A DNA stretch of 64,000 nt, from the NCBI GenBank assembly GCA_964612295.1, contig CAZTDY010000005.1:70666-134665 (forward strand), read 5' to 3'. The translations under genes and the position numbers were made by a program. The notes beneath the pieces were generated by a model, which ran no database searches, was not told the origin of the DNA, and worked only from the letters and a program-made list of their open reading frames with translations. Each line of letters begins with the position of its first letter. Positions within the stretch are counted from its first letter, which is position 1. This document shows positions 3,672 to 23,648 of the stretch, piece after piece. This DNA comes from an uncultured bacterium. Lineage in GTDB: Bacteria > Eisenbacteria > RBG-16-71-46 > CAIMUX01 > WJJG01.

Positions 3672-5714
3672 ATGCCCAACTCACCAGCGCCTACCTTGCG
3701 TTTTCTATTCCTATTGATCTGGCTTCTGGCCGGTTTTGCCGGGCCCGCGTTGGGGCAGGATCAGCCAGCGACCTGCCCAACCGGCGTGGGCGGGTTGCCG
3801 GAGGTCACCGGGAGGGGGCTCTCACCGGAGGCGATTCTCGGGCACCTCGAGGCCGACCTCGCCGAGGACTGGAAGAGCGGCGATCTGGTGACGCTCTTCG
3901 ACAGCACCCGCGTCGAGGTGGAGCTCTCCGGGTTGACGCACCGGTATCACCGCCGCTTGGTCAAGGTGATGTCGGAGGCGGGCGGCCGCCAGATGGCCTC
4001 GATCCGATTCGACTACGACCCGGCCTCGAACCTGATCGAAATCCGCCGGGTGCGCATCCATCGAACCGACGGACGGTATGAGGACATCGATCCCGCGCGC
4101 GCCCAGGACGGCTTCGCGCCCGCTCACTCGATCTACTGGGGCGCGCGCATGAAGGTGATCGCCCTGCCGCGTCTGCGTCCGGGGGATGTCGTCGAGACCA
4201 TCACCTACAAGAAGGGTTTCCTGATCGCCTACCTGCTGGAAACCGGCGAGGAAGATGAGCGCTACATCCCTCCGATGCGTGGCCACTTCTATGACTCGAT
4301 CCTCTTCGGCGAAGGCCATCCCTTCAAGATCAAGCACTACGAGGTGATCCTCGATCGGGAGAAGCCTCTGCAATTCGCCACCTACAACGGTGAGATCTAC
4401 GCTGCGCAAACCTTCACCGACAGCACGCTCACCTATCAATGGTGGTCGATCGATCAGGACGCGGTCACCTACGAACCGCGTCAGCCGGGCCGAAGCGACT
4501 TCGTCCCCAAGGTGGTCATGGCCACCGTGGATGACTGGCCGGAGAAGTCTCGCTGGTTCTTCGAGGTCAACGATCCGGTGTTCGCCTGGAACGAAGCGAT
4601 CCAGGCCAAGGTCGATGAACTCACCGAAGGTCTGAAGTCTCCGGAAGAGGAGTATGCCGTCCTGACCCACTGGGTGGCGGACAACATCCGCTACTCCGGC
4701 CTCAGCATGGGCAAGGGTGAAGGCTATACGATTCATCCGAGCACGATGACCTGGAACGAGCGCTGCGGTGTGTGCAAGGACATCGCCGGCATGCTCGTGA
4801 CCTTCCTGCGCGCCGCCGGCTACACGAGCTACCCGGCGATGACCATGGCCGGCTCGCGGGTGGAGCCGGTTCCCGCCGACCAGTTCAATCACTGCGTCGT
4901 GGCCGTGCGGCAGGACGACGGGGGTTATGTGATGCTCGATCCGACCTGGGTGCCGCGGTCGCGGGATGTCTGGTCGAAGGCGGAGGGGGAGCAGCACTAT
5001 GTGATTGGCTCCCCGGAGGGTGAGGAGCTCACCGCGATCCGCACCTTTGAAGCGCAAGAGAGTCCTCTGCATGTGGAACTGAACACCAAGATCGAGAAGA
5101 CCGGTGACCTGCGCGGCGAGATCACGTTGGTGGGTGAAGGGTATCTCGATTCAAGGCTGCGCAGAATGTTGGCAGGCGAGAACCGGCGGGACTGGGATCG
5201 CCGGATGGTGCGGCTTCTGCGCGCCATTTCGCCGGCCGTCCAGATCACCGAGAGCGAGTATGCCGACTTTCGCGACTACCGCGAACCGATGCGATGCAGC
5301 GCGCGCTTCCACATCCCAGGTTATGCGGCCATCACGGATTCGACCTGCGACTTCAGATCGCCTTCGCTTCGGTTTCTGCAGGGGTGTGGGGGCTTCGTGC
5401 GCTTTATCGGGCTCGCGCCGGTCGAAGACCGCAGCCACCCGGCGCTGTTCTGGGCAACCTCACTGGTGGACATCGAAGAGCGCCTTGAACTGCCCGCGAC
5501 CTACGAGATCGCCGCGGAACCTGAGGATGTCGAACTCGAGTTTGCCTCCGGGAGCTTCCTGACGACGACCGAGACCAAGGGCAAGAGGCGCACCAGCCAC
5601 CTTCGGCTCGCACTGCTCAAACGAACGGTGCCGGCAGATGAGTGGGCCGATCTGGTGACGATCGCGGACACGTTGGACACAATCGCGGAGTCGATGGTCG
5701 CCGGCCGCAAATGA
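3672..5714 (+). CDS. Transglutaminase-like cysteine protease domain protein with DUF3857-like N-terminal region, secreted
   Basis: Signal peptide is present. The Cys-His-Asp core reads NERCGVCKDIAGMLVTFLRAAGY ... FNHCVVAVRQDDGGYVMLDPTW, as in the transglutaminase-like superfamily. Confidence 0.75.
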   Translation: MPNSPAPTLRFLFLLIWLLAGFAGPALGQDQPATCPTGVGGLPEVTGRGLSPEAILGHLEADLAEDWKSGDLVTLFDSTRVEVELSGLTHRYHRRLVKVMSEAGGRQMASIRFDYDPASNLIEIRRVRIHRTDGRYEDIDPARAQDGFAPAHSIYWGARMKVIALPRLRPGDVVETITYKKGFLIAYLLETGEEDERYIPPMRGHFYDSILFGEGHPFKIKHYEVILDREKPLQFATYNGEIYAAQTFTDSTLTYQWWSIDQDAVTYEPRQPGRSDFVPKVVMATVDDWPEKSRWFFEVNDPVFAWNEAIQAKVDELTEGLKSPEEEYAVLTHWVADNIRYSGLSMGKGEGYTIHPSTMTWNERCGVCKDIAGMLVTFLRAAGYTSYPAMTMAGSRVEPVPADQFNHCVVAVRQDDGGYVMLDPTWVPRSRDVWSKAEGEQHYVIGSPEGEELTAIRTFEAQESPLHVELNTKIEKTGDLRGEITLVGEGYLDSRLRRMLAGENRRDWDRRMVRLLRAISPAVQITESEYADFRDYREPMRCSARFHIPGYAAITDSTCDFRSPSLRFLQGCGGFVRFIGLAPVEDRSHPALFWATSLVDIEERLELPATYEIAAEPEDVELEFASGSFLTTTETKGKRRTSHLRLALLKRTVPADEWADLVTIADTLDTIAESMVAGRK

Positions 5715-5737
5715 TGCGAGATGAGGGAGTGACGCCC

Positions 5738-7687
5738 ATGAAGGCGAGAGCCGCCACGATCAGCCTGTTCCTTCTGGTCATCCTGGGAGCACCGACGAGC
5801 GCCCGGGCCGACCTCGCGCCCCTCCTCGAACCGGATGAGGTGCGCGCGCTGGTTGCCGAGCACGCCGCCGCCGAATTCCCCGAGGAGGATGCCGTCGTTC
5901 TCTTCATGGGCGAGCGCGTGCGTCTGGAGCCGGACGGGTCGATCGCCCGCCGGACCCAACGGATCGTCCTCTTGCAGACCGAGCGGGCCATCGGCGCGCT
6001 CGGCGACCCCCGGGTGACCTTCAATCGGCGTCATCAGGAACTGCTGATCCACCGCTGCCGAACGTACGTCCCGGGAGGGATCGAGGTGGATGCCACCGAT
6101 CACGCCTTCAACCCCGTGACCCCGGATGCCGTCGCGCGTTGCCCGGATCGGATGTTCCATCAAGACATGGTGATCACCCATGTCGGCATCGAACGCGGTT
6201 GCGTGATCGAACTCGACACCGAGATTCGGGACCTGAAGCCCCATCAGGCCTGGCTCGAGGGGGAGGTCTTTCTCCACGAGCCGTACCCGGTTCTGGATCG
6301 GTTCCTGGAGATCGAGACGCCCGATCACGTCACGTTGCACTATGAGCTTTCGCGCCTGCAGGGCGGCCCGGAGCTGCATCAGGAACAGGGGCGGGCCCAT
6401 CACATCTGGCACTTCGGCCTCCTGCCGGGGGTCCGTGAGTCGGACGACGGTTACGGCGGACGATTGGCCCGCGGCCGGCTGCTCTACAGCACCTGCCCCA
6501 GCTGGGAGTATCTGGCCCGGCGAACGTGGGAACAGATCGACTCGGCCGCCCAACCCGACACGTTGATGGCCACGTTTGTGAACTCGGCCGAGCTCAAAGG
6601 GGCCGGCGAACTGGAACAGGCCCGGGAGATCCTGAGCGTCCTCTCCTCTCAGACGAGGCGGGCCAACGTTCGGCCGTTTGCCGGGCTCCCGAATCCCCGC
6701 AGTGCCGCGGAGACGTTCGTGTTTCGATGTGGCGATCCATGGGATCGGACCAGTCTTGCGATCGCCGCGCTTGGAATGGTCGATCTCGGCGTGGTCACGA
6801 CGCTGCGCGCCAATGCACGCGACGTCAAGAAAGGCGTGCCCATGATGGGCCAGTTCTCCGAGGTCTGGTTGCAGGCCCAGGTTGATGGGGAAACCGTGCT
6901 CTTGGACCCGGTGAGCGGCCACCTCGAGTCGCCGGTCTCCGTCGCGCGGCCCTTCCTGATTCTGGGTGAACGGGGGCTCGAATGGCGCGAGGAATCGGCC
7001 GGGCAGGGCCTGAGCCGACTGTGGGTCGACCTGGCGATGGAATCGGGAGGTGCGGTTGCCGGCCACGTCGACTTGCGGCTCGAAGGCGTCCAGTGGCGCT
7101 GGTCCGACCACGACGGCCCGGGCGACTTGGCCGATGAGGTTGCGGCCCAGATTCTCCCGGGATCCACGCGCGGTGAAGTGGATGTTCGCTGGTTTGGTCC
7201 CGATCGATGCGACCTCCGGTTCGAGGTTGAAGCGCCCTCGCTCGGCGAGCGTGACGGCTCGCGCACCTACGTGCGCCTTCCGGCTCCGCCGGCCGGGATT
7301 GCCGAGGCCATCGGTGGATACGGTCTCGATCGGACAGCGCGAAGCAGCCCGCTTTTCCTACCTGCTCCGATGGAGGAGGTGGTGAAGTGGCGTCTCCGTC
7401 TGCCCGAGGGGATCGAACCGGTCTACCTGCCCGCGGCGGCGGATGAGGACACCCGCGCTGCCCGTTTCGCCATGACGATTGAACGGATAGCGCGTCCCGC
7501 CGACGCGTGGTCGCGCCCGGATGAACGCGAGGCGCGCGGGGAGGAGATTCAAGTCAACTGGACCGCCGGCCTTCCCATGGCCGAGATTCCTCCGGCGCGG
7601 TACCTGGAGCTGAAGAAGGTGATCGGGCGGTATCAAGCTGAGAACCAGCGGCTTCTGATCCTGGGGGGATGGCCCGAGGGGGACTAG
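5738..7687 (+). CDS. DUF3857/transglutaminase-like paralog, probably catalytically degenerate, secreted
   Basis: Start MKARAATISLFLLVILGAPTSARA (signal peptide) at 5738, 24 nt after the upstream stop. It retains the Cys box (FRCGDPWDRTSLAIAAL) but the His position is altered (FSEVWLQAQVDGETVLLDP). It sits in tandem with the 3672 gene. Confidence 0.65.
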   Translation: MKARAATISLFLLVILGAPTSARADLAPLLEPDEVRALVAEHAAAEFPEEDAVVLFMGERVRLEPDGSIARRTQRIVLLQTERAIGALGDPRVTFNRRHQELLIHRCRTYVPGGIEVDATDHAFNPVTPDAVARCPDRMFHQDMVITHVGIERGCVIELDTEIRDLKPHQAWLEGEVFLHEPYPVLDRFLEIETPDHVTLHYELSRLQGGPELHQEQGRAHHIWHFGLLPGVRESDDGYGGRLARGRLLYSTCPSWEYLARRTWEQIDSAAQPDTLMATFVNSAELKGAGELEQAREILSVLSSQTRRANVRPFAGLPNPRSAAETFVFRCGDPWDRTSLAIAALGMVDLGVVTTLRANARDVKKGVPMMGQFSEVWLQAQVDGETVLLDPVSGHLESPVSVARPFLILGERGLEWREESAGQGLSRLWVDLAMESGGAVAGHVDLRLEGVQWRWSDHDGPGDLADEVAAQILPGSTRGEVDVRWFGPDRCDLRFEVEAPSLGERDGSRTYVRLPAPPAGIAEAIGGYGLDRTARSSPLFLPAPMEEVVKWRLRLPEGIEPVYLPAAADEDTRAARFAMTIERIARPADAWSRPDEREARGEEIQVNWTAGLPMAEIPPARYLELKKVIGRYQAENQRLLILGGWPEGD

Positions 7688-7690
7688 CCG

Positions 7691-9676
7691 CTACTCGATA
7701 TACCCCAGGCTCTTCAGCCGTTGCAGCTGACGGTCGTCCAGCTGCAACGATCCGTCTTCCCCGCTTCGGAGAACGGCCTCCTGAATATCCCGCGCCGCGG
7801 CCAGCTCCAGGCGCAGGATCTCCCGGAACTGGGCAAGGCAGGCCGGTTCCTCGGCCGGGAGGAGATTGTGCTCTTCTCCCGGATCGGCGGCCAGGTCATA
7901 GAGGTGCTCGGCGGCGGGATCGATCACCGCTCGGGTTTCTTTGCCGGTCGAGCAGATGTACTTCCAGTGCTCGGTCCGAATGCTGGTGGCGTGTACGGCG
8001 AATCCCATGCTGCGCGGATGGAGGATCTGAGCCGGCGTTGCCGCCGAGTCCGCTTCCTCGCCGCCGAAACCCAGGAACGGGGTAAGGCTCCTTCCCTGGA
8101 GGATGCCGGTCTTCTCCAGGCCGGCCAGATCGAGCACGGTGGGTACGAGGTCGACGAGCTGAACCAACTCCGCGCTCTTCGCCGCACTCTCCTGTTCGGG
8201 CAGCCGGATGAGCAGGGGCACGTGGAGCGACTCATCGTAGAGATCCAGATGGAGAGGCTTGCCGTGCTCGAAGAACTCCTCGCCGTGATCGGAGGTCAAG
8301 ATCACCACCGTGTTGGTTGAGAGATTCAGCGCCTCGAGCGTGTCGAACAGGCCGCCCAGAGCATCGTCCGCATAGGCGATCCCGCCATCGTAGTACGAGA
8401 TCACGTCTTCCAGGTCAGCCGCGGCCATGGGCGTGTCCACGTTGCCGAACCCATAGTCGCGGAGGAGTTCCGAGGCGCAGTGGCCGTTGGGTCCACAACC
8501 CGAGAACCGCGCCCGGGGCGGGTCGCTCAGAAACTCCGTCTGGAAAGGGGCGGGCTCCTCGTAGGGGAGCCGGTGGATATCGGAGTGGATGTCGAAGAGG
8601 TGCAGGAACAGGAAGAAGGTTGTCTCCTGGTGCCAGGTGAGCCACTTGAGAGCCTGGGCGATCTGGGGCTTTGCCGTACCGGTCTTGTGATGGACATAGG
8701 ACCAGCGGACTTTGTCACCGGTGCGCAAGAGCAGACCCCGTAGGAGCGGATGCGGATAGGGAGGATGGACGTAGTCCGCGAAACCCTGGGCGAATCCTCG
8801 GCGTTTTCCGATGTAGGAGGAGGCATCGCCGCCGACAAAGGCCCCGGCGCGATAGCCGTCCCCCTCCAATCGTTCGGCCAGGGTCGTGAATTGGGGGCTC
8901 AGGCGACTGCGATCCGCAACCAGGGCGAGGGCGAGGGGCGAGACACCGGTGAGCATCGAGGCGTGGGACGGCAAGGTCCAATGCGATTGAGCATACGCGT
9001 TCTCAAAGAGCGTTGCCCCTTGTGCCCAGCGGTCGATCACCGGCGAGGTGTCTTGCCCGTAGCCATAACATCCCAGGTGATCGGCACGGAGCGTATCGAG
9101 TGAGATCAGGATGATATTCGGCCGAGCCCCGGCCTCCGCGACAGCCGGGCGTTGCCATCCGAGAAAGGTGCCCAACCCGCACGCCACTGCACTCGCCGCC
9201 AGCCAGAGGGGTAGTCGTCGCAGCGCAGGACCCCACCTCCCGGTGGCCGAGGCGCCAAAGCGCTTCGGCAGGAGCCAGAGGATGACTGCGATGCTCAGGC
9301 TGCCCACCGCAATCAAGATCAAGGCCGCCTTCCACGAGACGCCGGGCAGGCTTCCCGCGGGCTGCGCCTCTTCAACCAGAAGGAAGGCGATAGCTCCGAG
9401 CACGCCCCCGCCGAACAGGGCCCGGAACCAACGCACCGCCGCACTGCGCGTCGCCCATCCGAAGAAGCGGGCCACGGGATGAAGAACGAGTACCACGGCC
9501 AGCAGCGCAACCGCATCGAAGGCCATGCTGAGGAGGATCGCGCCGAGGCGCAGCGAAGCATCCCCCGCCACGGCGGGCAGGAGGCGCAGGCTCAAGTAGC
9601 CGTCGATGAAACCGACCCAGAGCCCGATGCAGAGCCAGCTGAGCAGCCACCTCCGAGTCTGTGGGGAAGGAACCAT
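7691..9676 (-). CDS. Alkaline-phosphatase-superfamily (sulfatase-like) membrane hydrolase/transferase, LtaS/EptA-like
   Basis: Start MVPSPQTRRWLLSWL at 9676. The N-terminal region has about 6 TM helices. The periplasmic domain reads IILISLDTLRADHLGCYGY...SHWTLPSHASMLTG, with Thr and His in place of the formylglycine Cys and the Arg of true sulfatases. This favours a phospho-transferase such as LtaS, MdoB or EptA over a sulfatase. Confidence 0.7.
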   Translation of the reverse strand: MVPSPQTRRWLLSWLCIGLWVGFIDGYLSLRLLPAVAGDASLRLGAILLSMAFDAVALLAVVLVLHPVARFFGWATRSAAVRWFRALFGGGVLGAIAFLLVEEAQPAGSLPGVSWKAALILIAVGSLSIAVILWLLPKRFGASATGRWGPALRRLPLWLAASAVACGLGTFLGWQRPAVAEAGARPNIILISLDTLRADHLGCYGYGQDTSPVIDRWAQGATLFENAYAQSHWTLPSHASMLTGVSPLALALVADRSRLSPQFTTLAERLEGDGYRAGAFVGGDASSYIGKRRGFAQGFADYVHPPYPHPLLRGLLLRTGDKVRWSYVHHKTGTAKPQIAQALKWLTWHQETTFFLFLHLFDIHSDIHRLPYEEPAPFQTEFLSDPPRARFSGCGPNGHCASELLRDYGFGNVDTPMAAADLEDVISYYDGGIAYADDALGGLFDTLEALNLSTNTVVILTSDHGEEFFEHGKPLHLDLYDESLHVPLLIRLPEQESAAKSAELVQLVDLVPTVLDLAGLEKTGILQGRSLTPFLGFGGEEADSAATPAQILHPRSMGFAVHATSIRTEHWKYICSTGKETRAVIDPAAEHLYDLAADPGEEHNLLPAEEPACLAQFREILRLELAAARDIQEAVLRSGEDGSLQLDDRQLQRLKSLGYIE

Positions 9677-9779
9677 GCTCTCAATCCATTCATCCAAGCG
9701 GCATTCCGACGATCTCAAGTGAGCATCGTAGCACGGTAGCGGAGACGGTCCCACATGTCCATGGAGTTGCCCCGGAGGG

Positions 9780-10313
9780 CTAGTCCAGCCTGCGCAGATC
9801 CTGCAGTTTGAACGATTCGGTCTGGCCGCGTTCCTTCTCCGGCCTGAGCCCCGCCACGTCCCACAGGTAACGCAGCGCAACCTCGCCCGCCGAAGGCGAC
9901 GGGTCGGAGGCCGAATCCTCCTGGGCCGCGCTGCCCTGTTTCAGCCAGCGCTCGGCCTTGACCACGTCGTCGAACGAGAGGGCCTGGCAGAGCAACTCCG
10001 TGACCACGTAGTAGCGGGCAGTGCGATCCAGCTCATCCACCGGCAGCAGCGGGGCCAGCAGGTGACTGTCCATCAGGAGGTGAATGTCACTGAGATCGTC
10101 ACAGGTCAGCTCGGCGTCCTTGCCCTGGAAGTCGTTCAGCGCCAGGTGAAGGCGTCCGTCGATCGTGACGGCCAGACTGTCGGCATACATGAGGCAGACT
10201 GCCTCCGGAGCCGAGGCTCCGGCCGATGGCACGTAGGCCATCGACCAGAGCCCAACCATGAAGAGGCAGCCGGCGATCGTTCTGGCTAGAACGGTTGCCC
10301 GATCGTTACCCAT
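9780..10313 (-). CDS. Small secreted hypothetical protein (operon partner of upstream Omp85-like gene)
   Basis: N-terminal hydrophobic signal (…CLFMVGLWSMAYVPSAGASA). It overlaps the stop of the 10286..12022 gene by 28 nt, or starts at M19 (10259). No recognisable family. Confidence 0.45.
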   Translation of the reverse strand: MGNDRATVLARTIAGCLFMVGLWSMAYVPSAGASAPEAVCLMYADSLAVTIDGRLHLALNDFQGKDAELTCDDLSDIHLLMDSHLLAPLLPVDELDRTARYYVVTELLCQALSFDDVVKAERWLKQGSAAQEDSASDPSPSAGEVALRYLWDVAGLRPEKERGQTESFKLQDLRRLD

Positions 10314-12022
10314 ATCTTGGCGTCCGCATCCGAGTCATCCAGGGACTTGGCCAGGTCGACCCTGAGGTCTTCTCCCAATCGTATCCGCAGCCCGACCGTG
10401 GAGGAGAATTTGCCGTCATCGATGATGTCCGCATCTCGATCCGCGGTCTTGCCGATGTCATAGAAGATGGCGGGCTGAAAGTCGGTGAACGGGATCCGCG
10501 GCGCGTATTCGACGTTGGCGAGCACCATCTGATCGCCCATGAGGCTCTTGTGATCGATCCCGCGAATCGTGCGAGCCCCGCCCAGGTAGAACTTCCGGAA
10601 GAGGGGCAGGTCGCCCTCGGATGACCCGTACTTCACCCGCACGTTGATATTGCCGATGCCCTTGATCGGCTGAAAACGCTGCAGCTCGGCCGTGTAGCGC
10701 TCGTAGCAGAGATCACCCTTCAGATCCTCGCCGGCCTTGCGGTACTCCGCGCGGAAGATGACCCCGTACTCCGGGTATTCGTCGTCATCGACCCAGTTCA
10801 ATTCATACCAGGCGATGAGTTCGCCCAGCTTGGCGCTGAAGTCGTCCACGCCTGCGCTGAGCATCGAGTCGGGAAGGGTCGAGAAGTTGGGGCGGAACTG
10901 TTTGTGGGCGTCGAAAAGGTGCCAGAGATTGGGGTAGTGATCCTGCCAGGCCAGTTCCGTGAAGCGGTAGGCCGCACCGAACTCGTTGTGCCGCTCCGGT
11001 TGAATCGTCAGGAACCCGCGGGCGCCCTTCTCGAGGTAGTAATCGCCGTAGTCTTCGGCCGCGAGGAGCGAGAGCACCGTGGTCTCATCCCGGGGGGCGA
11101 GCCAGTAGTCGTCCGAGGTCGACTGCCGGAAGAAGCTCCCGCCGATGGTGATTGGAAACGCATCGAAGAATCGCTGCCGGGCGCCGAGTTCGTAGTCCCA
11201 CCGTCCGGGCATGAACGCGCGAGTGGCGCGGGCGAAGAAGGTCGGCAGGACGGAGTCGGGATCCGCGATCTGCAGGCGGGCGCTGATCGTGCCCCCATCG
11301 ACCCGGTTGTAGTATCCATCGGTCGAAAGGACGTGCTCGTTGTCCCAATCCCAGTCGTACTCCGCTCCATCTCGGCGGCCGCGGGAGATCGCGCGGTCCG
11401 AGAAAACCTCACCTTCCACATGGCTCTCACGGTCCAAGCGGATCCGGCCGGCGATCGCGACGACGTCGCCGTGCACGCGGGCATCCGGGGCGATGTCGAT
11501 GTCGCCGCCCAGGGCCACCACGTTGCGGCGGACCTCTCCGTCGACATAAACGTCACCACCAAAGCAGATCACATCCCCGTAGATGAAGTCCTCGGAGTCG
11601 ACGTCCAGATCGTGACCCAGCGCGAAAAGCGCCCGGCGCGAACGGAGCCGATTGTCGTCGCTCAGGCCGTGCCGGTTCGCGAAGCTGACCTCGATCCGGC
11701 CGCGCCTCCCGCGCACGCCGTCGACCAGCAGTTCGCCCAGGTCGTAGCGCAGCTGTCCCACCAGAATCGCGTCGCGCTCGATCATGACCTCCGAACAGAG
11801 CACCAGGCGGTCCCCACTCAGATAGATGTCATCGGCGTCGAATTCGATGGTGCGGGTCGTGCCGTTCTCCTCGAGGCGAATGAAGCCGTCATCTCCCTCG
11901 GTGCCGATCACGATGAGGGTGGCCTCTTCCATGCCCGCGTCCCTCGCGCCGGCCGGGCCCAATGCGGCCAGGGCCAGAAGCGCGATTCCGAGAAGGCGCG
12001 TGATCTGCTTCCTGCGTGTCAT
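10286..12022 (-). CDS. Outer-membrane Omp85-family beta-barrel protein with N-terminal bactofilin-like/beta-helical repeat domain
   Basis: Start MTRRKQITRLLGIALLALAALGPAGA (signal peptide) at 12022. The N-terminal region carries repeated G-D-V/I motifs (IYGDVICFGGDVYVDGEVRRNVVALGGDIDIAPDARVHGDVVAIAGRIRL) like polymer-forming bactofilin or beta-helix repeats. The C-terminal barrel has the Omp85 signature FYLGGARTIRGI and a terminal aromatic (…IWVTIGQPF). No POTRA domains are evident. Confidence 0.65.
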   Translation of the reverse strand: MTRRKQITRLLGIALLALAALGPAGARDAGMEEATLIVIGTEGDDGFIRLEENGTTRTIEFDADDIYLSGDRLVLCSEVMIERDAILVGQLRYDLGELLVDGVRGRRGRIEVSFANRHGLSDDNRLRSRRALFALGHDLDVDSEDFIYGDVICFGGDVYVDGEVRRNVVALGGDIDIAPDARVHGDVVAIAGRIRLDRESHVEGEVFSDRAISRGRRDGAEYDWDWDNEHVLSTDGYYNRVDGGTISARLQIADPDSVLPTFFARATRAFMPGRWDYELGARQRFFDAFPITIGGSFFRQSTSDDYWLAPRDETTVLSLLAAEDYGDYYLEKGARGFLTIQPERHNEFGAAYRFTELAWQDHYPNLWHLFDAHKQFRPNFSTLPDSMLSAGVDDFSAKLGELIAWYELNWVDDDEYPEYGVIFRAEYRKAGEDLKGDLCYERYTAELQRFQPIKGIGNINVRVKYGSSEGDLPLFRKFYLGGARTIRGIDHKSLMGDQMVLANVEYAPRIPFTDFQPAIFYDIGKTADRDADIIDDGKFSSTVGLRIRLGEDLRVDLAKSLDDSDADAKIWVTIGQPF

Positions 12023-12076
12023 GTCATGTCTCCCTCTCAAAGGGTCCACCAGGTTTCCTGTTCACCCTTGGAGAGT

Positions 12077-12091
12077 GCATGGGCTGTGCCA
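12077..12091 (-). promoter_or_regulatory. Sigma-54 (-24/-12) promoter candidate upstream of the Omp85-like gene
   Basis: The minus strand reads TGGCACagcccATGCA, with GG and GC at canonical spacing (consensus TGGCAC-N5-TTGCW). It lies 55-70 nt upstream of the 12022 start and directly downstream of the NtrC-family regulator gene. An inverted repeat caacggc…gccgttg at 12118..12156 upstream could be the enhancer. Confidence 0.5.
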
Positions 12092-12191
12092 TCTTAGCGC
12101 GCTTGCCGCAACCCACTGCAACAACGGCAGATGGGTGGTGCGCGCCGTGCGCCGCCGTTGTCAATTCCACAACACCGGCTCTCCGGCGTTG

Positions 12192-13562
12192 TCAGGAGGA
12201 CAACAACCCCAGCCGTTTCAGCTTGCGATAGAGGTTTCCGCGATCCACCCCCAGGTCCTGGGCCAGCTGGGTGATGTTCCCGCCGTGCCCTTCGAGCTGG
12301 CTTCGCAGATAGCCGCGTTCGAACTGCTCGACGGCCCGGGTCAGCCGGTTCTTGCCGTCCTCCGCGGCCGTTTCGCCCCCATTTGGACCCAGACAGGGCC
12401 GCACCTGGGTCGCGTCGATCGAATCGCCGCCGCACGTGTAGTAGAGCCGTTCGATCACGTTGCGCAGCTCGCGGACGTTTCCCGGCCAGGGGTGCGCCAT
12501 CAGAAGATCGAGCGCCTCGGGAGTGATCGCAGGGCAGAGGCCTCCCTCCCGGCGGTGCAGCCCATCACGGAAGTGCTCGGCCAGAGAGGGGATATCCTCA
12601 CGCCGCTCGCGCAGCGGCGGCACGGTCAAGGGGACGGTGTTGATTCGGTAGAGAAGATCCTCTCGAAACTGACCCCCGGCCACCATCTCATCCAAGCGGC
12701 GATGGGTCGCACTCAGCACCCGGACGTCGACCGCGGTCGGACGCTCGCCTCCCACCGGGGTGATTCGCCCGCTCTCCAGGGTGCGCAGAAGCTTCGGCTG
12801 CATGGCGAGGGGCATGTCACCGATCTCATCGAGCAGCAGGGTCCCCCGGTGGGCTTGCGCGAACCGGCCGGGCCGCGATTGGGTGGCTCCCGTGAAAGCG
12901 CCCTTCTCGTGACCGAAGAGCTCGCTCTCGACCAGCTCCGCCGGCATCGCCGAGCAGTTGAGCGTCACCAGGGAGCCTTCCGCCCTCGGGCTCCGAAAGT
13001 GGATCTGGGCGGCCACGTTCTCTTTTCCGGTGCCACTCTCGCCCAGAATGAGAATGCGCACATCGCTCGAGGCAAGTCGTTCGATCTGACCGAGCAGATG
13101 CGCCATCTGCGCGGAGCCGCCCACGAGCGGATAGTCCGCGAGCCGTTTCTCCTGCAGACTGCGATTGCTCTCTTTGAGCCGCGCGATCCGGAGTGCGTTG
13201 CCCACCACGGTCAGGAGCCGCGCTGGTTCGAATGGTTTCTCGAGGAAGTCGGTCGCGCCCCGCTTGATCGAATCCGCGGCCTCCTGGAGCGACGCCGCGC
13301 CGGAGACCATGACGATCTCGGGCGGGTGGGTCTGGGCGCTCAACTCGGCGAGCAGATCGGTTCCTTTCCCGTCGGGCAGCTGAATGTCGAGGAGCAGCAC
13401 GAGCGGGCGGTGGCGGGCCAGCGCTTCCCGGGCGGGGGTGAGGGCTTCGAACTCGGCCAGCGAGTATCCCTCCCGGGTGAGAAGCAGGCGGACCTCCTCC
13501 CGGAAGAGCGCATCGTCGTCGACCAAGTAGATGTCAGCCGGTGGCGTCGTCATCCGCGGCAT
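12192..13562 (-). CDS. Sigma-54-dependent response regulator (NtrC family: REC-AAA+-HTH)
   Basis: Receiver domain (DIYLVDDDALFREEV...LLLDIQLPDGKGTDLL), AAA+ with a Walker A (ILGESGTGKE), the GAFTGA-like ESELFGHEKGAFTGA box that defines sigma-54 enhancer-binding proteins, and a C-terminal Fis-type HTH (ITQLAQDLGVDRGNLYRKLKRLGL). Confidence 0.9.
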   Translation of the reverse strand: MPRMTTPPADIYLVDDDALFREEVRLLLTREGYSLAEFEALTPAREALARHRPLVLLLDIQLPDGKGTDLLAELSAQTHPPEIVMVSGAASLQEAADSIKRGATDFLEKPFEPARLLTVVGNALRIARLKESNRSLQEKRLADYPLVGGSAQMAHLLGQIERLASSDVRILILGESGTGKENVAAQIHFRSPRAEGSLVTLNCSAMPAELVESELFGHEKGAFTGATQSRPGRFAQAHRGTLLLDEIGDMPLAMQPKLLRTLESGRITPVGGERPTAVDVRVLSATHRRLDEMVAGGQFREDLLYRINTVPLTVPPLRERREDIPSLAEHFRDGLHRREGGLCPAITPEALDLLMAHPWPGNVRELRNVIERLYYTCGGDSIDATQVRPCLGPNGGETAAEDGKNRLTRAVEQFERGYLRSQLEGHGGNITQLAQDLGVDRGNLYRKLKRLGLLSS

Positions 13563-14457
13563 TCCAATCCAGGCTGAAGGTTGTTCCCGTGTTTCCCGTC
13601 CGGTAGGCGATCCTACCCCCCAGTGATCCGACGATCTTCTTCACAATCGCCAGCCCAAGTCCGGAGCCGGACGGCTTGGTCGTGACGTAGGGGTCGAAGA
13701 GCCGCTGCTCGATCTCGGGCGGGATCCCCGGACCGTCATCGCGCACCTCGATCCGCACGCCTACGCCGGTGGCGGCGGTGGCGATCGCTACCCGGCCATC
13801 GGGTCCGGCGGCCTCCCGGGCATTCTTGAGGAGGTTCACCAGGGCCTCCCTCAGCATATAGGGGTCGATGGAAATGGGGGGCAGGCCCGGCGCCAGCTCC
13901 ATGTCGATCCCGGCCGCGGGAGCGAAACTCTCACTTAGCCGTACGGCCTGCTGCACGATCGAGTTCGGTTCGGCGGGCAGAGGTTGAATGTCGATCGGCC
14001 GGCCGAAGAGGGAGAAATCGCGTGCGATTCGCTCCAGACGATCCAACTCCGAGCGCACCGTCTCCAGCGGCTTGCCCGCCGCGGAGTTCTGCTCGTCCGG
14101 TTGGGCCTGCTCGGGCAGGCGCGCGAGGGCGAGTTTGACCGGCGCCAGAGTGTTCTTGATCCCGTGGGCGATCGTGCGGGCGGTCTGCTGCCAGGCGGCC
14201 GTACGCTCGGCCTCGACGAGCCGCTCGGTGGCCTCGGCCAGGCGCGTCGACATTCGGTTGAAGCCGTCCACCAGGGCACCGACCTCATCTTTCCGCCGGT
14301 AGGGAAGGCGGACGTCCCACTGGCCCGGTCCCACAGACTCGGCCAGACGTTCCAGGTCCGCCAGGGGGCGGGTGAGGCTCCGCGCGGTGAACTGGCTCAC
14401 CATCAGGATGACGAGCAGGTACAGCAGGTTGGCCAGACCCCAGAGGAGCCGCAGCAT
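13534..14457 (-). CDS. Sensor histidine kinase core (TM-HAMP-HisKA-HATPase), lacking its periplasmic sensor region
   Basis: A single TM (LWGLANLLYLLVILMVSQF), an H-box (TIAHGIKNTLAPVKL), and N/G boxes (NLLKNAREA...GSGLGLAIVKKIVGSLGGRIA). It overlaps the regulator gene by 29 nt. The N-terminal sensor part appears displaced into the 14533..15348 ORF. Confidence 0.8.
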   Translation of the reverse strand: MLRLLWGLANLLYLLVILMVSQFTARSLTRPLADLERLAESVGPGQWDVRLPYRRKDEVGALVDGFNRMSTRLAEATERLVEAERTAAWQQTARTIAHGIKNTLAPVKLALARLPEQAQPDEQNSAAGKPLETVRSELDRLERIARDFSLFGRPIDIQPLPAEPNSIVQQAVRLSESFAPAAGIDMELAPGLPPISIDPYMLREALVNLLKNAREAAGPDGRVAIATAATGVGVRIEVRDDGPGIPPEIEQRLFDPYVTTKPSGSGLGLAIVKKIVGSLGGRIAYRTGNTGTTFSLDWNAADDDATG

Positions 14458-14490
14458 CCGGCGTCCTCCGCCCCTCAGGACCAGCTTCAG

Positions 14491-14890
14491 TGTAAGTACT
14501 CGCCGTACCCCGTTACGGTCGATTCAGGCGGATCAACTCATCAAGTCTGAAGGCAGGGTCACCGTTCCGGGCTTCTTGAGTGCGGCATAGGCGGCTTCTC
14601 GTAGGTACGCTTTCGGTTCCACGCGGCAGAGCTTCGCCGATTCCAATAGGCTGTAGAACAACGCCGCCACCTCGGTTCCGCGCTTCGATCGCGAACCATA
14701 GTGATTCTTTCGGCCCAAGACCACTCCGCGCAGCGCTCGTTCAGCCGCGTTGTTGTCCAAAGGGATCCGAGGATCATCCAGGAACGCGATCAACCGGGGC
14801 CACAGCTTCAGTTCTTCGAACCGCTGCAAGTGGAAGGCCAGCTCCTCGAGCAACCGGCCTTGGTCGACCGGCAGCCAACAGCCTGTGACC
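14491..14890 (-). mobile_element. IS66-family insertion sequence remnant (3' end of tnpC plus terminal inverted-repeat-like end)
   Basis: The transposase C-terminal coding fragment is followed at 14491 by TGTAAGTACTCGCC, which resembles the GTAAGCG… termini of IS66-family IRs. No tnpA or tnpB is present, so it is a degraded remnant. The inner boundary is approximate. Confidence 0.5.
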
Positions 14891-15348
14891 AGCAGATGGG
14901 TCTGTGACCAGCGGAGGGCGTAGGCCAGGACGCGCTCCTCGATAGACATCCAGCCTGAGCGGCTTCCGCTCAGCGGCGAGTCGGTGGGCGATGTTTCCCC
15001 CAACGCGAGCAGCCGGCTTCGGATGAAATCGGGCGAGAGATCTCCCTCGCCCGCGCTGGTGGTGTCCTCCCCGGTGACGAGGACCGCGATATCGAGCCCG
15101 TGGGCGAGATACTGCTCGGCGCTTGCGTAGATCGGGGAGGCGGGGGTGAGCTCCAGCGTCTTGCCGGCATAGGCTTCGAGGGTCCCATCGGCCAGGGCGT
15201 GGGCGTCGAGGAGCGCCTCCTCGATGCCGGGCGAGGCGATCCGCTCCAGGCTCCCGATCCCCAACTCCAGGCTCAGGTAGGACAATCCCGCCACGGGCAG
15301 GAAGGCAAAGAGGAAAAACGCGAGAAAGAGCCGGGTTTTGAGTCTCAT
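14533..15348 (-). pseudogene. Chimeric ORF: N-terminal fragment of the sensor kinase (TM1 + periplasmic region) fused to the C-terminal ~115 aa of an IS66-family transposase
   Basis: Residues ~1-150 form a signal/TM helix and a periplasmic-like domain. From ~WSQTHLLVTGCWLPVDQGRLLEEL onward the sequence HLQRFEELKLWPRLIAFLDDPRIPLDNNAAERALRGVVLGRKNHYGSRSKRGTEVAALFYSLLESAKLCRVEPKAYLREA matches the conserved IS66 TnpC C-terminus (…DNNxxERxxRxxxxGRKNxxFxxSxxGxxxxAxxYSLxxTxKLNGVxPxxYL…). Confidence 0.6.
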
Positions 15349-15768: not shown

Positions 15769-16440
15769 ATGAAGAAGCTGAGTCTTCTGGTGGGGTGTCT
15801 ATTGGCCCTGGTGCTTCCTGGTTCGAGCCAGGCGGGCATCAGCCCCGATCTCAACGGCTTAGGCAGTTTCGGCATTAGCGTCGGCGCGATGCGCTGGTTC
15901 GCGGACGGGGATGCCAGCGAGTGGGAAGGCCATGCCGCGCAGATCCGGCCGATCGGGAAGGCCGTCTTCCGCTATCGGTGGAGCTCGACCTGGGCCGCCG
16001 CCGTCGAAGCCGGATTCGGCTGGAACAGCTATGCGGAAAGCGACGACCTCGTAACCTGGGTCATTCCACTCACGCTCGGTTTCGAGCGCCATATCGGGGA
16101 ATACTGGGGAGCCTCGACGTCGGTCAATTTCGGTTCCGGCATGTTCGTGTGGGGTCGGCGCCGCGGCGGGAACTTCCTTCACGATGAAATCACTCAGAAG
16201 AAGTATCACGCCACCGATCCGGGTCTGTTTGTCGGGCTGATCGGGGAGTACCACCTGGACGAGCACGTCACGATCACCAATCAGTTGACCGCGACCTACA
16301 TCTATTCTCTCCACAGCGACGACTTCAAGGCTGCGCTCGGCGGCGACGACCTGTTCGTCGATCTGCGGATAGGCATCAACTACTACTTCTCGACGCGCGA
16401 GGGGCTCATCGTCCGGGAGGGGGGGGGCGAAGGTCGATGA
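15769..16440 (+). CDS. Outer-membrane beta-barrel protein (OmpA-like/OmpW-like small porin family)
   Basis: Signal peptide MKKLSLLVGCLLALVLPGSSQA. Alternating amphipathic beta-strand pattern rich in aromatic residues, with a terminal aromatic region (…INYYFSTREGLIV). Confidence 0.6.
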   Translation: MKKLSLLVGCLLALVLPGSSQAGISPDLNGLGSFGISVGAMRWFADGDASEWEGHAAQIRPIGKAVFRYRWSSTWAAAVEAGFGWNSYAESDDLVTWVIPLTLGFERHIGEYWGASTSVNFGSGMFVWGRRRGGNFLHDEITQKKYHATDPGLFVGLIGEYHLDEHVTITNQLTATYIYSLHSDDFKAALGGDDLFVDLRIGINYYFSTREGLIVREGGGEGR

Positions 16441-18205: not shown

Positions 18206-19021
18206 TCAATTCGATCGCGTCTCCGGCTGCGATTCAGGCACCTCGAAGGTGAAGTTCGGATCGAGAACCTTGATCTGTTCGACCACTGCTTCGAGCTTCG
18301 CCTTCACCGCCGGGTCACTCGTTCTCTTCCACTCCGCGTAGAGATCCAGGAACTCGTCCTGTTTGCCGCGGAGATCTTCACAGCGCTTCGATTCACTGAC
18401 CGTCCGCTCGAGGTGATAAACCTCGCCGTGAGACAGCTTGTCCAAGAGGTTCAGATACTCCCCCCGCATGTGCGACAGAATGCGCAGGTACTTCTCGAAT
18501 CCAACACTGAGCTTCTCGAGCACGTCGGTGATCGCGGCGTGCGGATCGTGGATCTTCTGGCTGTACGTGTAGGCGAAGCGGTAGTAGGTCTTGCCCCGCC
18601 CGATGTACGCCTCTTCCGAGGGCTGGAACACCTGCCTCTCGGGCACGATCAGCGTGCTGGGATTCACCGGATCGGTCGCCACGGGATTGTCGAAGATTCC
18701 CAGGGAGACGAGCAGGAAGTCCGCATTGGTCTTGTACAGAGTATATTTCAGGCGCGCGTCCCGCGACTCGGCCAGCCGGCCGAAGACCTCGCTGTCATAC
18801 TTCGACAGGTATTTGTTTGCGCGCTGAATGTACTCCGGATTGATGAAGGAGTTCAGAAGATGGGCGATATAGACGTTCACATCTTCGTCGTAGTAGTCCT
18901 TGTTTGAAACCAGTCCGGTCTCGATGCGCGAATACAGCAGACACTTCAACATGAAGTAGTAGGTCGGCTTCAGATCCCGCGTCTTGCCCGTCAGGTCTAT
19001 GTAGCTGCTCCGGGTCGACAT
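18206..19021 (-). CDS. Hypothetical protein, locally low-GC orphan gene
   Basis: Start MSTRSSYIDLTG at 19021. No recognisable family. The Tyr/Lys/Asn-rich composition and GC (~55%) are clearly below the window average. Confidence 0.5.
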   Translation of the reverse strand: MSTRSSYIDLTGKTRDLKPTYYFMLKCLLYSRIETGLVSNKDYYDEDVNVYIAHLLNSFINPEYIQRANKYLSKYDSEVFGRLAESRDARLKYTLYKTNADFLLVSLGIFDNPVATDPVNPSTLIVPERQVFQPSEEAYIGRGKTYYRFAYTYSQKIHDPHAAITDVLEKLSVGFEKYLRILSHMRGEYLNLLDKLSHGEVYHLERTVSESKRCEDLRGKQDEFLDLYAEWKRTSDPAVKAKLEAVVEQIKVLDPNFTFEVPESQPETRSN

Positions 19022-19509
19022 CGCTCCAGAAACTCCCTTTCTAACCGCTCGTCGTCCGTTCAAATGGTGCGGTTTCAGAATCCCGTTGACACTCAGCGGC
19101 CCTCAACTCATGCTCGTGATGCCGGGTTCTGGTGGGGAGATTCAGCAACGGCTGTGCCAGCAACGGCTGGCCGGCGGCGCCGGGTCGGGAGGGGTTCACG
19201 CAGCGACGCATCAGGCAACCTGCAGGCGCTCACAGGTTCGATCCCGGCTGGCGAACCGATCCATCCTGCTAAGATTCTGTCTTTGGCGGGGATGTGGCGA
19301 GTACCCTCGCGTCGTTTGGTGCATCGGCCCACCCGTTCTGCGCGCTCACTCCTCTCCCAAAACCGCCCTGCCAATTGGCCCGATTCGCGTGTGGTTTCAG
19401 GCAAACCGCCCATCCGGATCTGAGCGACCCAAGCCCGGGTCCTTGCAGACTGCATCCGTGGCCCCCCGGCCGCGTGCATTCTGCGGTAGGAGAGAGGGAG
19501 AGATCGGTC

Positions 19510-22135: not shown

Positions 22136-23648
22136 TGACGTTCGCGTCATCGAGCTTCTTCAAATCACCCTCTCGGGTCGCGGCTACTCTGTTCACACCG
22201 CCTTCGACGGCCACAGCGCGGTCGAACAGATCGAAAAGCGGAAGCCCGACATGGTGGTCCTCGACGTGCGGCTCCCGCGAAAGAGCGGCTTCCAGGTTCT
22301 GGAGGAGATCCGCTCCGACCCAGATCGGGCGCAACTGCCCGTCATCCTGATCTCCGGGAATCCATCGAATGAGACCCGCATTCAGGGCCTGCGCCTGGGC
22401 GCGGATGACTTTCTGATCAAGCCGTTTTCACCCCGCGAACTCATCATGAAGATTCGCCGCATCCTCGATCGGGTCGGGGATCAGAAGATCCTGCAGACCC
22501 GCAATCTGGCCCTCGAGGACGAGGTGGCCCGACAGCGCGAGCAGCTGCTGCAGACCCACGCCGACATGCACGCGAACCTGATGCGGATCGGCACGGTCCT
22601 GCAGCGGGTCGAGCAGATCAATGACCGCAGCAGTCTCCTGAAGGTGATGGAAGGCTTCGTCCGGGCGATCATCTCCGATGTTGGCGTGGATTCGGTTTGC
22701 CTCTTCACCCGGGATATCCACAGCCGGCGGTTTCGACCGGAGGTCTGGCGCGGCCTGTCGGGGTCGGCGGTCCTCAATCTTGTTGTTGAGGGAGAGGGAT
22801 TCCTGGCGCAGGTGCTCACCCTGGAAGCCCGCACGATGGGATTGGATGAATTCGAAGACTACCCCCGCGCCTCCGAGGAGCTGATGAAGCTCTCCGCGGC
22901 CGGGTTCACCCACCTGACCCCGGTCAAGTTGGCCGGCGAGATGATCGCCCTGATCGCCGGTGGCGACAAACTCGGGGGACACACCCTCGAGCCGATCGAC
23001 ATTCACCTCCTCTCGGTCCTGGCGCGGGCGGCCGCAGCCTCGATCAAGAACGCGGAGATGCTCGACGAGTCACGCCGCTCCTTCGTGGACACCTCCGCCG
23101 AGTTGATTCGGCTGATCGAGGATCGCTACGACAGCGTCCGGGGACACTCCGAGCGCGTTCACGATCTGTCCCTGGGGATCGCCGGCGAGATGGATCTGGG
23201 CCGGCGGGAACGGCAGACGATTGCCCATGCCGCCAGGCTCCACGACCTGGGGGCGCTCAACGAGTATGAGACCCTCTTCGTGGGGGAGACCACCCTCGAC
23301 GACGATCAGCGCAAGGCGCTCCGCCGAAAAGCCTCGGAGGGTGTGCAGCAACTGCTCGACCGCACCCACATGCCGGAAGTGGCCGAAGCCGTCATGCACG
23401 TCAACGAATACTGGGACGGCAGCGGGCTTCCCGACGGGCTGGCCGAGGAGTCGATTCCACTGGCCTCACGCGTGGTGGCCGTCGCCAACGCCTATGATGC
23501 GCTGGTCCACGATCGTCCCCACCGGCAGGCTTATCCGCATGAGGCCGCGCTGAAACTCATCGATGAACGTGGGGGTCACCAATTCGATCCGCAGGTGGTT
23601 GCGTGCCTGGCGAAGGCCCTGGCCCGCGCCGAGGCGCCGGTCGACTAG
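22053..23648 (+). CDS. Response regulator with GAF and HD-GYP (c-di-GMP phosphodiesterase-type) domains
   Basis: REC (NVLVVDDDVRVIELL…MVVLDVRLPRKSGFQVLEEIR…ADDFLIKPF), a central GAF-like region, then HD-GYP (GHSERVHDLSLGIAGEM…ARLHDLGAL…HVNEYWDGSGLPDGL). The ATG at 22053 overlaps the upstream gene by 83 nt, so the true start may be the in-frame TTG at 22083. Confidence 0.8.
   Translation: METRKTTLGSLQTPSGTQTRENVLVVDDDVRVIELLQITLSGRGYSVHTAFDGHSAVEQIEKRKPDMVVLDVRLPRKSGFQVLEEIRSDPDRAQLPVILISGNPSNETRIQGLRLGADDFLIKPFSPRELIMKIRRILDRVGDQKILQTRNLALEDEVARQREQLLQTHADMHANLMRIGTVLQRVEQINDRSSLLKVMEGFVRAIISDVGVDSVCLFTRDIHSRRFRPEVWRGLSGSAVLNLVVEGEGFLAQVLTLEARTMGLDEFEDYPRASEELMKLSAAGFTHLTPVKLAGEMIALIAGGDKLGGHTLEPIDIHLLSVLARAAAASIKNAEMLDESRRSFVDTSAELIRLIEDRYDSVRGHSERVHDLSLGIAGEMDLGRRERQTIAHAARLHDLGALNEYETLFVGETTLDDDQRKALRRKASEGVQQLLDRTHMPEVAEAVMHVNEYWDGSGLPDGLAEESIPLASRVVAVANAYDALVHDRPHRQAYPHEAALKLIDERGGHQFDPQVVACLAKALARAEAPVD

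Follow-up and report, generated by a model that had tools for sequence, protein, structure and literature searches.

The Omp85/TpsB proteins have been sorted into ten subfamilies, which include the WD40, patatin/PlpD, metallophosphatase and noNterm types (Heinz & Lithgow 2014, PMC4104836). Separately, a 2026 genetic study described PlrP, a protein of the DUF4390 family, as the periplasmic third component of PlrSR, a Bordetella two-component system (TCS) of the NtrYX family; phosphatase activity is restrained by PlrP through the kinase periplasmic domain, and plrP homologues, reported in beta-, gamma- and zeta-proteobacteria and in Magnetococcia, always co-localise with ntrYX homologues (PMC13001219). 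A locus in which an Omp85 gene and a DUF4390 gene stand next to a TCS is described here. It is contained in a stretch of 64,000 nucleotides (nt) of contig CAZTDY010000005.1 (assembly GCA_964612295.1, positions 70,666 to 134,665), from an uncultured bacterium of the Eisenbacteria lineage; the whole stretch is called the window in the following. The genes are arranged in the conserved order membrane histidine kinase, sigma-54 response regulator, Omp85 barrel, DUF4390 gene, which is found in the window and in loci L027, L008, L006, L013-16, L033-36, L039 and L040. The barrel protein carries an all-beta domain and a bactofilin-like beta-helix where POTRA domains would be expected. In the best-supported reading, held with moderate confidence, the TCS would control a sigma-54 target operon, in which the barrel would be the envelope output and the DUF4390 protein a feedback modulator. 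The features on which the analysis is based are collected in Table 1.

The barrel gene falls within an open reading frame (ORF) extending over 10286..12049 on the reverse strand. Its likely start is the ATG at 12022, which has a ribosome-binding site (GAGGGAG) 8 nt on its 5' side, and is the same start as in an 86%-identical orthologue. The protein begins with a signal peptide, MTRRKQITRLLGIALLALAALGPAGA, in which no lipobox cysteine was found on reading the sequence, followed in order by a domain named D1, by the D2 beta-helix and by the 16-strand Omp85 barrel. Two AlphaFold2 (AF2) models were built, one for the full protein, based on an alignment of 11 sequences and with a mean predicted local distance difference test score (pLDDT) of 78.6, and one for residues 30-228 alone, with a pLDDT of 86 and a predicted template modelling score of 0.84.

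The C-terminal part matches the Pfam Omp85 family (PF01103) over residues 342-561, scoring 50 bits where 24 is the cutoff, and 16 long strands are predicted by AF2 between residues 232 and 574. When the barrel was compared with PDB by Foldseek, the closest fold matches were BamA barrels (E 9e-16, TM-score to target about 0.64). The core of the loop-6 motif, T-I-R-G-I (residues 485-489), corresponds to the Omp85 motif (V/I)RG(F/Y), with the aromatic position taken by I, L or S in the barrel family; F478, L480, G481, G482, T485 and R487 are invariant across 11 homologues. The protein ends in ...WVTIGQPF, and the terminal Phe is kept in 10 of these 11. A weak match to the Pfam ShlB/FhaC family (24.9 bits) overlaps the Omp85 one. 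Among NCBIfam models, the BamA equivalog TIGR03303 gives 35 bits against a cutoff of 297, the TamA model NF047950 gives 21 bits against 625, and the TamL model is also far under its cutoff, while about 200 folded residues before the barrel separate the protein from the noNterm class. Its features place the protein in the Omp85 superfamily, but not among the BamA, TamA, TpsB or noNterm proteins. Its barrel fold finds the best structural match in BamA/TamA, but it has no POTRA domain and sequence identity is about 15%. With the non-POTRA Omp85 subfamilies it shares the 16-strand barrel, the loop-6 Arg motif, the aromatic beta-signal and the presence of a non-POTRA N-terminal module, although none of the ten subfamilies has an orphan beta domain combined with a beta-helix (PMC4104836). 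No paper dealing with Omp85 together with bactofilin was found in the searchable literature.

In the AF2 models, D1 is a separate, non-repetitive domain (residues ~36-117 in the full-length model), for which no relatives could be detected, connected by a disordered linker to D2, whose strand pairs start at residues 132, 151, 168, 187 and 206 with pLDDT values over 90; a linker of about 17 residues is predicted between D2 and the barrel. POTRA domains were sought in several ways. The barrel protein has no Pfam POTRA match at E<=1, and neither AF2 model contains a helix within residues 30-230. A Foldseek search of PDB with the N-terminal model returned no POTRA and nothing significant, the best match being a fatty-acid-binding-protein-like fold (E 0.04, probability 0.2-0.4), and profiles of the N-terminal region and of D1 found only chance-level matches among PDB sequences. 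Since POTRA domains have a beta-alpha-alpha-beta-beta fold, and no helix is predicted, the presence of a cryptic POTRA can be excluded within the limits of prediction. Two other possible origins of the region were considered and rejected: D1 is not a copy of DUF4390, as the hhalign comparison between D1 and the DUF4390 family gave a probability of 0.2, and the repeats are not strands of the barrel, as the AF2 model gives D2 strands of just 3-4 residues and a barrel that counts 16 strands without them. A preliminary description of this DNA, made from the sequence alone, had proposed an Omp85 barrel with the loop motif and a C-terminal Phe, preceded by bactofilin-like repeats in place of POTRA domains. 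The barrel, the absence of POTRA and the distinction of the repeats from the barrel strands were all confirmed by the Pfam, AF2 and Foldseek results reported above, and a beta-helical fold of the repeats is predicted. The extent of about 250 residues originally attributed to the repeats was not: the G-D-V/I-rich repeats, with windings of about 18 residues, are confined to residues ~130-215, and hence span about 85 residues.

Bactofilin (PF04519) is the sole Pfam family matching the D2 region. The match is under threshold: the cutoff is 27.9 bits, while the full protein scores 19 (residues 148-189) and the N-terminal fragment 23.9. A similar sub-threshold match is found in 8 of 10 members of the barrel family. 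In two Omp85 proteins with multiple D2 copies, P0161 and P0186, the region matched by D2 is recognised as Bactofilin above threshold (54.9 and 40 bits, respectively), and for this reason D2 is assigned to the bactofilin-type beta-helix superfamily as a divergent member. The predicted beta-helix, the length of the windings and the composition of the repeats are shared with bactofilins (e.g. PDB 6RIA); bactofilins, however, are cytoplasmic and form polymers, whereas D2 stands behind a signal peptide, which argues for a periplasmic rather than a cytoplasmic location. The topology of Omp85 proteins would place D1 and D2 together in the periplasm. End-to-end polymerisation of D2 is doubtful, because D1 caps one of its ends and the barrel tethers the other.

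A profile of the N-terminal region was searched against 1.84 billion representative proteins, and 3,706 proteins were detected at E<=1e-3. Among the best 150 of them, taken as clusters at 50% identity, 75 carry D2 followed by a barrel, while the others have D2 repeats in different contexts; the 75 are divided into 36 with D1, D2 and barrel, 30 with D2 and barrel, and 9 with several D2 copies. A word-indexed search had found 11 relatives only, a number which reflects the limited sensitivity of that search and not a real rarity. Beta-helix-Omp85 fusions make up a populated group, and their architecture is not uniform. Proteins found outside the window extend the range of associations of D2-type beta-helices: in P0013 and P0014 such a helix stands between a signal peptide and a polytopic membrane region; in P0186 it is accompanied by three carbohydrate-binding modules of the CBM48 type and by an Omp85 barrel; in P0161 three D2 copies and a DUF5686-like region lead up to an Omp85 barrel, and LiaF-like and DUF4097 genes are found in the vicinity. 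As an extracytoplasmic module, the D2-type beta-helix is widespread. A gene context common to all beta-helix-Omp85 proteins was looked for and discarded, as P0161 is found among unrelated envelope genes and the P0140 barrel is alone.

A possible role for a protein of this kind is that of a POTRA-independent insertase or assembly paralogue, working as BamA or TamA on special substrates, which D1 and the beta-helix would dock, while the neighbouring genes would only have a regulatory function. The fold similarity to BamA barrels, the invariant Arg487 and G-G motif of loop 6, and the occurrence of the barrel alone in many genomes are all compatible with this role, and non-POTRA Omp85 classes have been proposed to act in protein assembly (PMC4104836). 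On the other hand, no conserved adjacent substrate, lipoprotein partner or TamB-like gene was found in the loci compared, the beta-helix has free sheet edges suitable for beta-augmentation only at its ends, and the scores with the BamA and TamA models are far under cutoff. Such a role is considered quite improbable.

The gene downstream of the barrel gene overlaps it by 28 nt, with its ATG lying within the barrel codons Ile570-Trp571, and its product starts with a hydrophobic N-terminal segment followed by an A-G-A site, read from the sequence as a signal peptide. PF14334, the Pfam family of DUF4390, is matched by 10 of 11 orthologues of this product (best E 1.6e-12), the one in L008 reaching 29.4 bits against a cutoff of 27. 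The copy in the window is alone in having no PF14334 match, because a 162-bp deletion, described below, removes the domain core. Members of the partner family range in size between 177 and 232 amino acids (aa), and their coupling to the barrel is kept down to about 22-27% identity. The overlapping downstream gene for a small secreted protein, as initially reported, is thus borne out, and its coupling to the barrel gene is conserved.

Like PlrP, the partner is a small protein with a signal peptide, assigned to DUF4390 through its orthologues and encoded within 5 kb of a membrane kinase and of an NtrX-like, sigma-54-type regulator. Differences are also evident. The loci described here belong to uncultured bacteria of the FCB (Fibrobacteres-Chlorobi-Bacteroidetes) group or Zixibacteria-like, outside the groups surveyed for PlrP (PMC13001219); plrP is upstream of the kinase gene and overlaps it, whereas here the DUF4390 gene is downstream of the regulator gene, behind a sigma-54-type promoter, and overlaps an Omp85 gene; finally, the window copy is without the domain core. 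The named organisms carrying related loci are Zixibacteria and, more distantly, Calditrichota, all uncultured, and for a gene neighbouring the module the best named match is from Candidatus Eisenbacteria. That DUF4390 is associated with NtrX-like systems was already known; new with respect to the searchable literature is the finding of DUF4390 outside Proteobacteria, in the apparent target operon of the regulator and coupled to an Omp85 barrel. The architecture of the barrel protein and the module are solid and undescribed, while the function of the barrel is one that we infer.

The relationships among the elements of the module were evaluated on a set of barrel loci, obtained by scanning species-representative genomes and metagenome contigs and reduced to 47 non-redundant ones; identical contigs, such as L001, were recovered from several metagenomes. 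Co-occurrence was counted only in the 37 loci in which both flanks of the barrel gene are visible. The regulator gene is adjacent and DUF4390 present in 18 loci, while in 13 neither is found and the barrel is alone; in four loci DUF4390 is present with no adjacent regulator, and in two the regulator is adjacent and DUF4390 absent. The presence of DUF4390 hence tracks that of an adjacent regulator (Fisher exact test, p=5e-5). In addition, the barrel of L032 stands alone between a NUDIX gene, upstream, and genes for a GAF kinase and a Ser/Thr kinase, downstream, which are the same flanks as those of the full module in L006. Both the counts and this comparison indicate that the DUF4390 gene is a companion of the TCS, as it is in Proteobacteria, and not an obligate partner of the barrel, which in turn argues against a barrel existing in order to export or assemble the DUF4390 protein. 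The export or assembly of the partner, suggested in the preliminary description, is therefore not borne out.

The same data bear on a type V-like secretion, in which the barrel would export either its partner, as in two-partner secretion (TPS), or its own beta-helix as a passenger, as in the patatin-Omp85 protein PlpD. Beta-helices are the fold that passengers of type V systems typically have, an overlapping gene pair encodes the barrel and, downstream, a secreted protein, the ShlB/FhaC family is weakly matched, and a TPS-like nature has been discussed for noNterm Omp85 genes that are followed by a partner gene (PMC11358297). Against this stand the lack of POTRA domains and the nature of the partner, which is neither a protein with a TPS domain nor a large beta-helical exoprotein, but a member of DUF4390, a family acting in the periplasm, and which tracks the TCS and not the barrel. 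Furthermore, only about 17 residues link D2 to the barrel, and the helix has only about 5 windings. Secretion of this type is very improbable, and an exporter is the least supported of the roles considered for the barrel.

The regulator and barrel genes are separated by 170 nt, in which both a candidate sigma-54-type promoter and twin palindromes are found. The promoter candidate, which has the GG-N10-GC spacing, is the top-scoring sigma-54-type site of the 64 kb, both strands considered. The centres of the palindromes are 31 bp apart, and the first one overlaps the stop codon of the regulator gene; the pattern TGT-N7-ACA has three matches in the 64 kb, two of which are at the twin palindromes. 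In every closely related TCS-linked locus (L027, L008, L006, L013-16, L020/L039 and L033-36), twin palindromes spaced by 31-34 bp are located about 80-120 bp on the 5' side of a -24/-12-like element. Neither the palindromes nor the -24/-12 element were found in the TCS-less loci L032, L041, L042, L051-54 and L060, and the contrast between the two groups is an internal control. Sites fitting a loose sigma-54 consensus, with up to 2 mismatches, are not enriched in the window (12 observed vs 20.6 expected); since their count is not above chance, the case for sigma-54 rests on the rank, position and conservation of the site. Elsewhere in the window, a perfect sigma-54 consensus, TGGCACAGCCGTTGCT, is located at 19144..19159(-), about 80 nt upstream of ORF 18206..19063(-). 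The latter encodes a protein of about 271-285 aa with no Pfam match, is syntenic with the module in L001, L005, L008 and L027, and may be, judging from the upstream site, another sigma-54-dependent gene of the neighbourhood.

In the best-supported reading, the barrel would be an accessory Omp85 outer-membrane protein, whose periplasmic part would be formed by D1 and D2 in place of POTRA domains. The barrel and DUF4390 genes would form a two-gene, sigma-54-dependent operon, with the barrel first, most likely driven by the upstream NtrYX-like TCS, made of a membrane kinase with a periplasmic sensor and of a GAFTGA-type sigma-54 activator. Once phosphorylated, the regulator would bind the twin GTTGT-N7-ACAAC palindromes and from there activate the -24/-12 promoter, making the barrel the envelope output of the TCS. 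The DUF4390 protein, made together with it, would feed back on the periplasmic domain of the kinase, as PlrP does on PlrS and CpxP on CpxA, and may dock on the periplasmic platform provided by D1 and D2. In the CpxP-CpxAR system, the regulon includes the gene of a small periplasmic protein that modulates the system itself; in the RcsF-BamA-IgaA system, an Omp85 barrel may take part in envelope-stress signalling. In both cases the likeness to the module is functional only, with no relationship in sequence.

Several observations weigh against this reading. The top NCBIfam match of the regulator is NtrX, with 388 bits against a cutoff of 600, and the kinase is matched best by AtoS and the LIC_11548 family and not by NtrY, so that the equivalog cutoffs of NtrX and NtrY are reached by neither protein; moreover, no recognised PDC match is found in the periplasmic domain of the kinase. 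Binding of the regulator to the palindromes is suggested by their position and conservation only. In the orthologous loci L013 and L016 the -12 element is weak (TTGAT), and in distant TCS-linked loci a good -24/-12 site is kept while the palindrome is absent, as expected if DNA-binding specificity has drifted. Finally, three or four loci have the barrel, DUF4390 and a sigma-54 site but no adjacent TCS. Among them are the Zixibacteria loci L018, L019 and L023, in which the -24/-12 site is strong (TGGCACGCAGATTGCA in L019, for instance) and twin palindromes are absent; their activator must be encoded elsewhere or be a different one.

The module of the window carries two lesions. The kinase gene (13534..15348) is split by a remnant of an IS66 transposase gene of about 350 bp (~14458..14814), so that the sensor half runs on in frame into the final ~90 residues of the transposase, and a Pfam DDE_Tnp_IS66 match is recorded for the corresponding ORF in the identical contig L001. 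The other half is contained in an ORF which restarts just ahead of the second transmembrane segment and of the HAMP domain. An intact kinase of 498 aa is encoded in the 86%-identical sister locus L027. Compared with the same locus, the DUF4390 gene shows a clean in-frame deletion of 162 bp, with its junction at ~10155..10166(-), which removes the most conserved block of the domain, G-x-P-L...W-F-D. In the DNA alignment with L027 the deletion is bounded by an 11-nt direct repeat, ACGATCGACGG, and looks like a slippage-type event. Both lesions strike the periplasmic sensing branch, while the barrel and the regulator are intact, a pattern that echoes the published requirement of PlrP for the periplasmic domain of its kinase (PMC13001219). 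No signal of relaxed selection was found against the sister locus, the ratio of nonsynonymous to synonymous substitution rates being 0.12-0.25 for all five pieces; no sign of long-standing decay is seen, and the lesions may be recent.

The joint damage to the kinase sensor fragment and to DUF4390 also speaks for another explanation, in which the barrel would belong to a trans-envelope sensor. By analogy with RcsF-BamA/OmpA-IgaA, the D1-beta-helix part of the barrel protein would hold the DUF4390 protein, and a perturbation of the outer membrane would release or reposition it, switching the kinase between its kinase and phosphatase modes; the barrel would then be the sensing or anchoring part of a four-part system. 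The 28-nt overlap, conserved across the family, implies that barrel and DUF4390 protein are produced together, and the barrel, DUF4390 and kinase proteins all have periplasmic parts, the periplasmic sensor domain of the kinase being also the site through which PlrP works (PMC13001219). This explanation is nevertheless unlikely: in 13 loci the barrel is found without TCS and DUF4390, sometimes in the same genomic position (L032 vs L006), and the proteobacterial PlrP systems function without such a barrel. A four-component device of the FCB group, in which the barrel would hold a PlrP-like DUF4390 protein by its periplasmic beta-helix and would relay the condition of the outer membrane to an NtrY-like kinase of the inner membrane, whose regulator would in turn control the barrel-DUF4390 operon, is to be regarded as equally doubtful.

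Table 1. Features of the module and of the second barrel pair, with positions in the window, strand and type of evidence.
Feature	Position	Strand	Evidence
Omp85-superfamily protein gene, POTRA-less, 578 aa	10286..12022	(-)	ORF, Pfam, AF2, Foldseek, 11 full-length homologues
D1, all-beta domain, ~87 residues (~32-118)	11669..11929	(-)	AF2, 10 strands, pLDDT ~90
D2, bactofilin-like beta-helix, residues ~130-215, ~5 windings of 18-19 residues	11378..11635	(-)	AF2, Pfam, profile
16-strand Omp85 barrel, residues 232-578, ending in the C-terminal beta-signal Phe	10289..11329	(-)	Pfam, alignment, AF2, Foldseek
Loop-6 motif FYLGGARTIRGI, residues 478-489	10556..10591	(-)	Alignment of 11 homologues
DUF4390/PlrP-family periplasmic protein gene, with signal peptide	9780..10313	(-)	Alignments, sister-locus DNA, PF14334 in orthologues
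Candidate sigma-54-type -24/-12 promoter TGGCAC-N5-ATGCA, 54 nt 5' of the barrel ATG	12076..12091	(-)	Site scoring, conservation
Twin palindromes GTTGT-N7-ACAAC, putative enhancer (upstream activating sequence)	12188..12204 and 12157..12173 (12157..12204)	(-)	Pattern scan, conservation
Sigma-54-dependent response regulator, REC, AAA+ (GAFTGA) and HTH_8, NtrX/NtrC-like	12192..13562	(-)	Pfam, NCBIfam, translation
Histidine kinase, C-terminal fragment: second transmembrane segment (TM2), HAMP, HisKA, HATPase	13534..14457	(-)	Pfam, alignment with intact orthologues of 498-545 aa
Histidine kinase, N-terminal fragment (TM1 and periplasmic sensor domain, ~14815..15348) fused to IS66 tail (~14533..14814)	14533..15348	(-)	Alignment
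Second Omp85 barrel, noNterm type, 456 aa	25324..26694	(-)	Pfam Omp85 49.8 bits; NCBIfam Omp85_fam 79.8 bits
560-aa signal-peptide protein, large unannotated family	23645..25327	(-)	Homologue search, Pfam, overlap read

A second barrel gene, followed by a gene for a secreted protein, is present at 23645..26694, and had initially been considered together with the first pair as one recurring module of a barrel and a small secreted protein. The pair and its ATGA overlap, read directly at 25324..25327, are real, but the partner, with its 560 aa, is not small. It has more than 262 homologues and no Pfam match. No folded N-terminal domain was detected in the second barrel, which fits the noNterm class and shares with the first barrel only 29% identity over 150 aa. 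The pair is conserved in L028 (1325..4104), a metagenome-assembled genome of Acidobacteriia, and in L029 (2509..5512), with family proteins of about 500-570 aa; it is found in Acidobacteriia and Candidatus Eisenbacteria, and further homologues are named as Latescibacteria and Myxococcales. A similar arrangement, in which noNterm Omp85 genes are followed by partner genes, has been discussed in Leptospira as TPS-like (PMC11358297). The second pair being a different system, in which both the Omp85 subfamily and the partner family differ from those of the first, the two pairs do not add up to a single recurring module.

Other genes were noted around the TCS-linked module. Directly downstream, at 7691..9700(-), a membrane-anchored protein of the sulfatase family is encoded, with a polytopic N-terminus (Pfam Sulfatase, E 1e-44); since the sister locus L027 lacks this gene in the corresponding place, it is probably a lineage-specific insertion. 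At 15769..16440(+), between the IMPDH and kinase genes, a signal-peptide protein of 223 aa with no Pfam match is encoded, syntenic in L005, L008 and L027, whose sequence looks like that of a small outer-membrane beta-barrel. Two large tandem DUF3857 proteins, one of which has a transglutaminase core, are encoded at ~3672..7687(+), as derived from positions 12336..16351 of L001; in the close relatives (L001, L005 and L027) their place beside the module is conserved.

Outer-membrane biogenesis and protein export have Omp85 proteins as their core machines, and the periplasmic domains of these proteins decide what they act on. A branch, populated but without annotation, in which POTRA domains are replaced by a beta-helix and which accounts for 75 or more of the best 150 clusters at 50% identity, widens the design space of the superfamily past the ten subfamilies. 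The 2026 finding of DUF4390 as a third component of NtrYX systems in Proteobacteria is extended to a distant bacterial group, and the link to the TCS suggests an outer-membrane barrel as a concrete target of regulation. The role of DUF4390 and the envelope targets of NtrYX-like systems are in this way turned into testable questions. If true, the four-component device would give Omp85 proteins a role in signalling, and the DUF4390/PlrP family a partner in the outer membrane.

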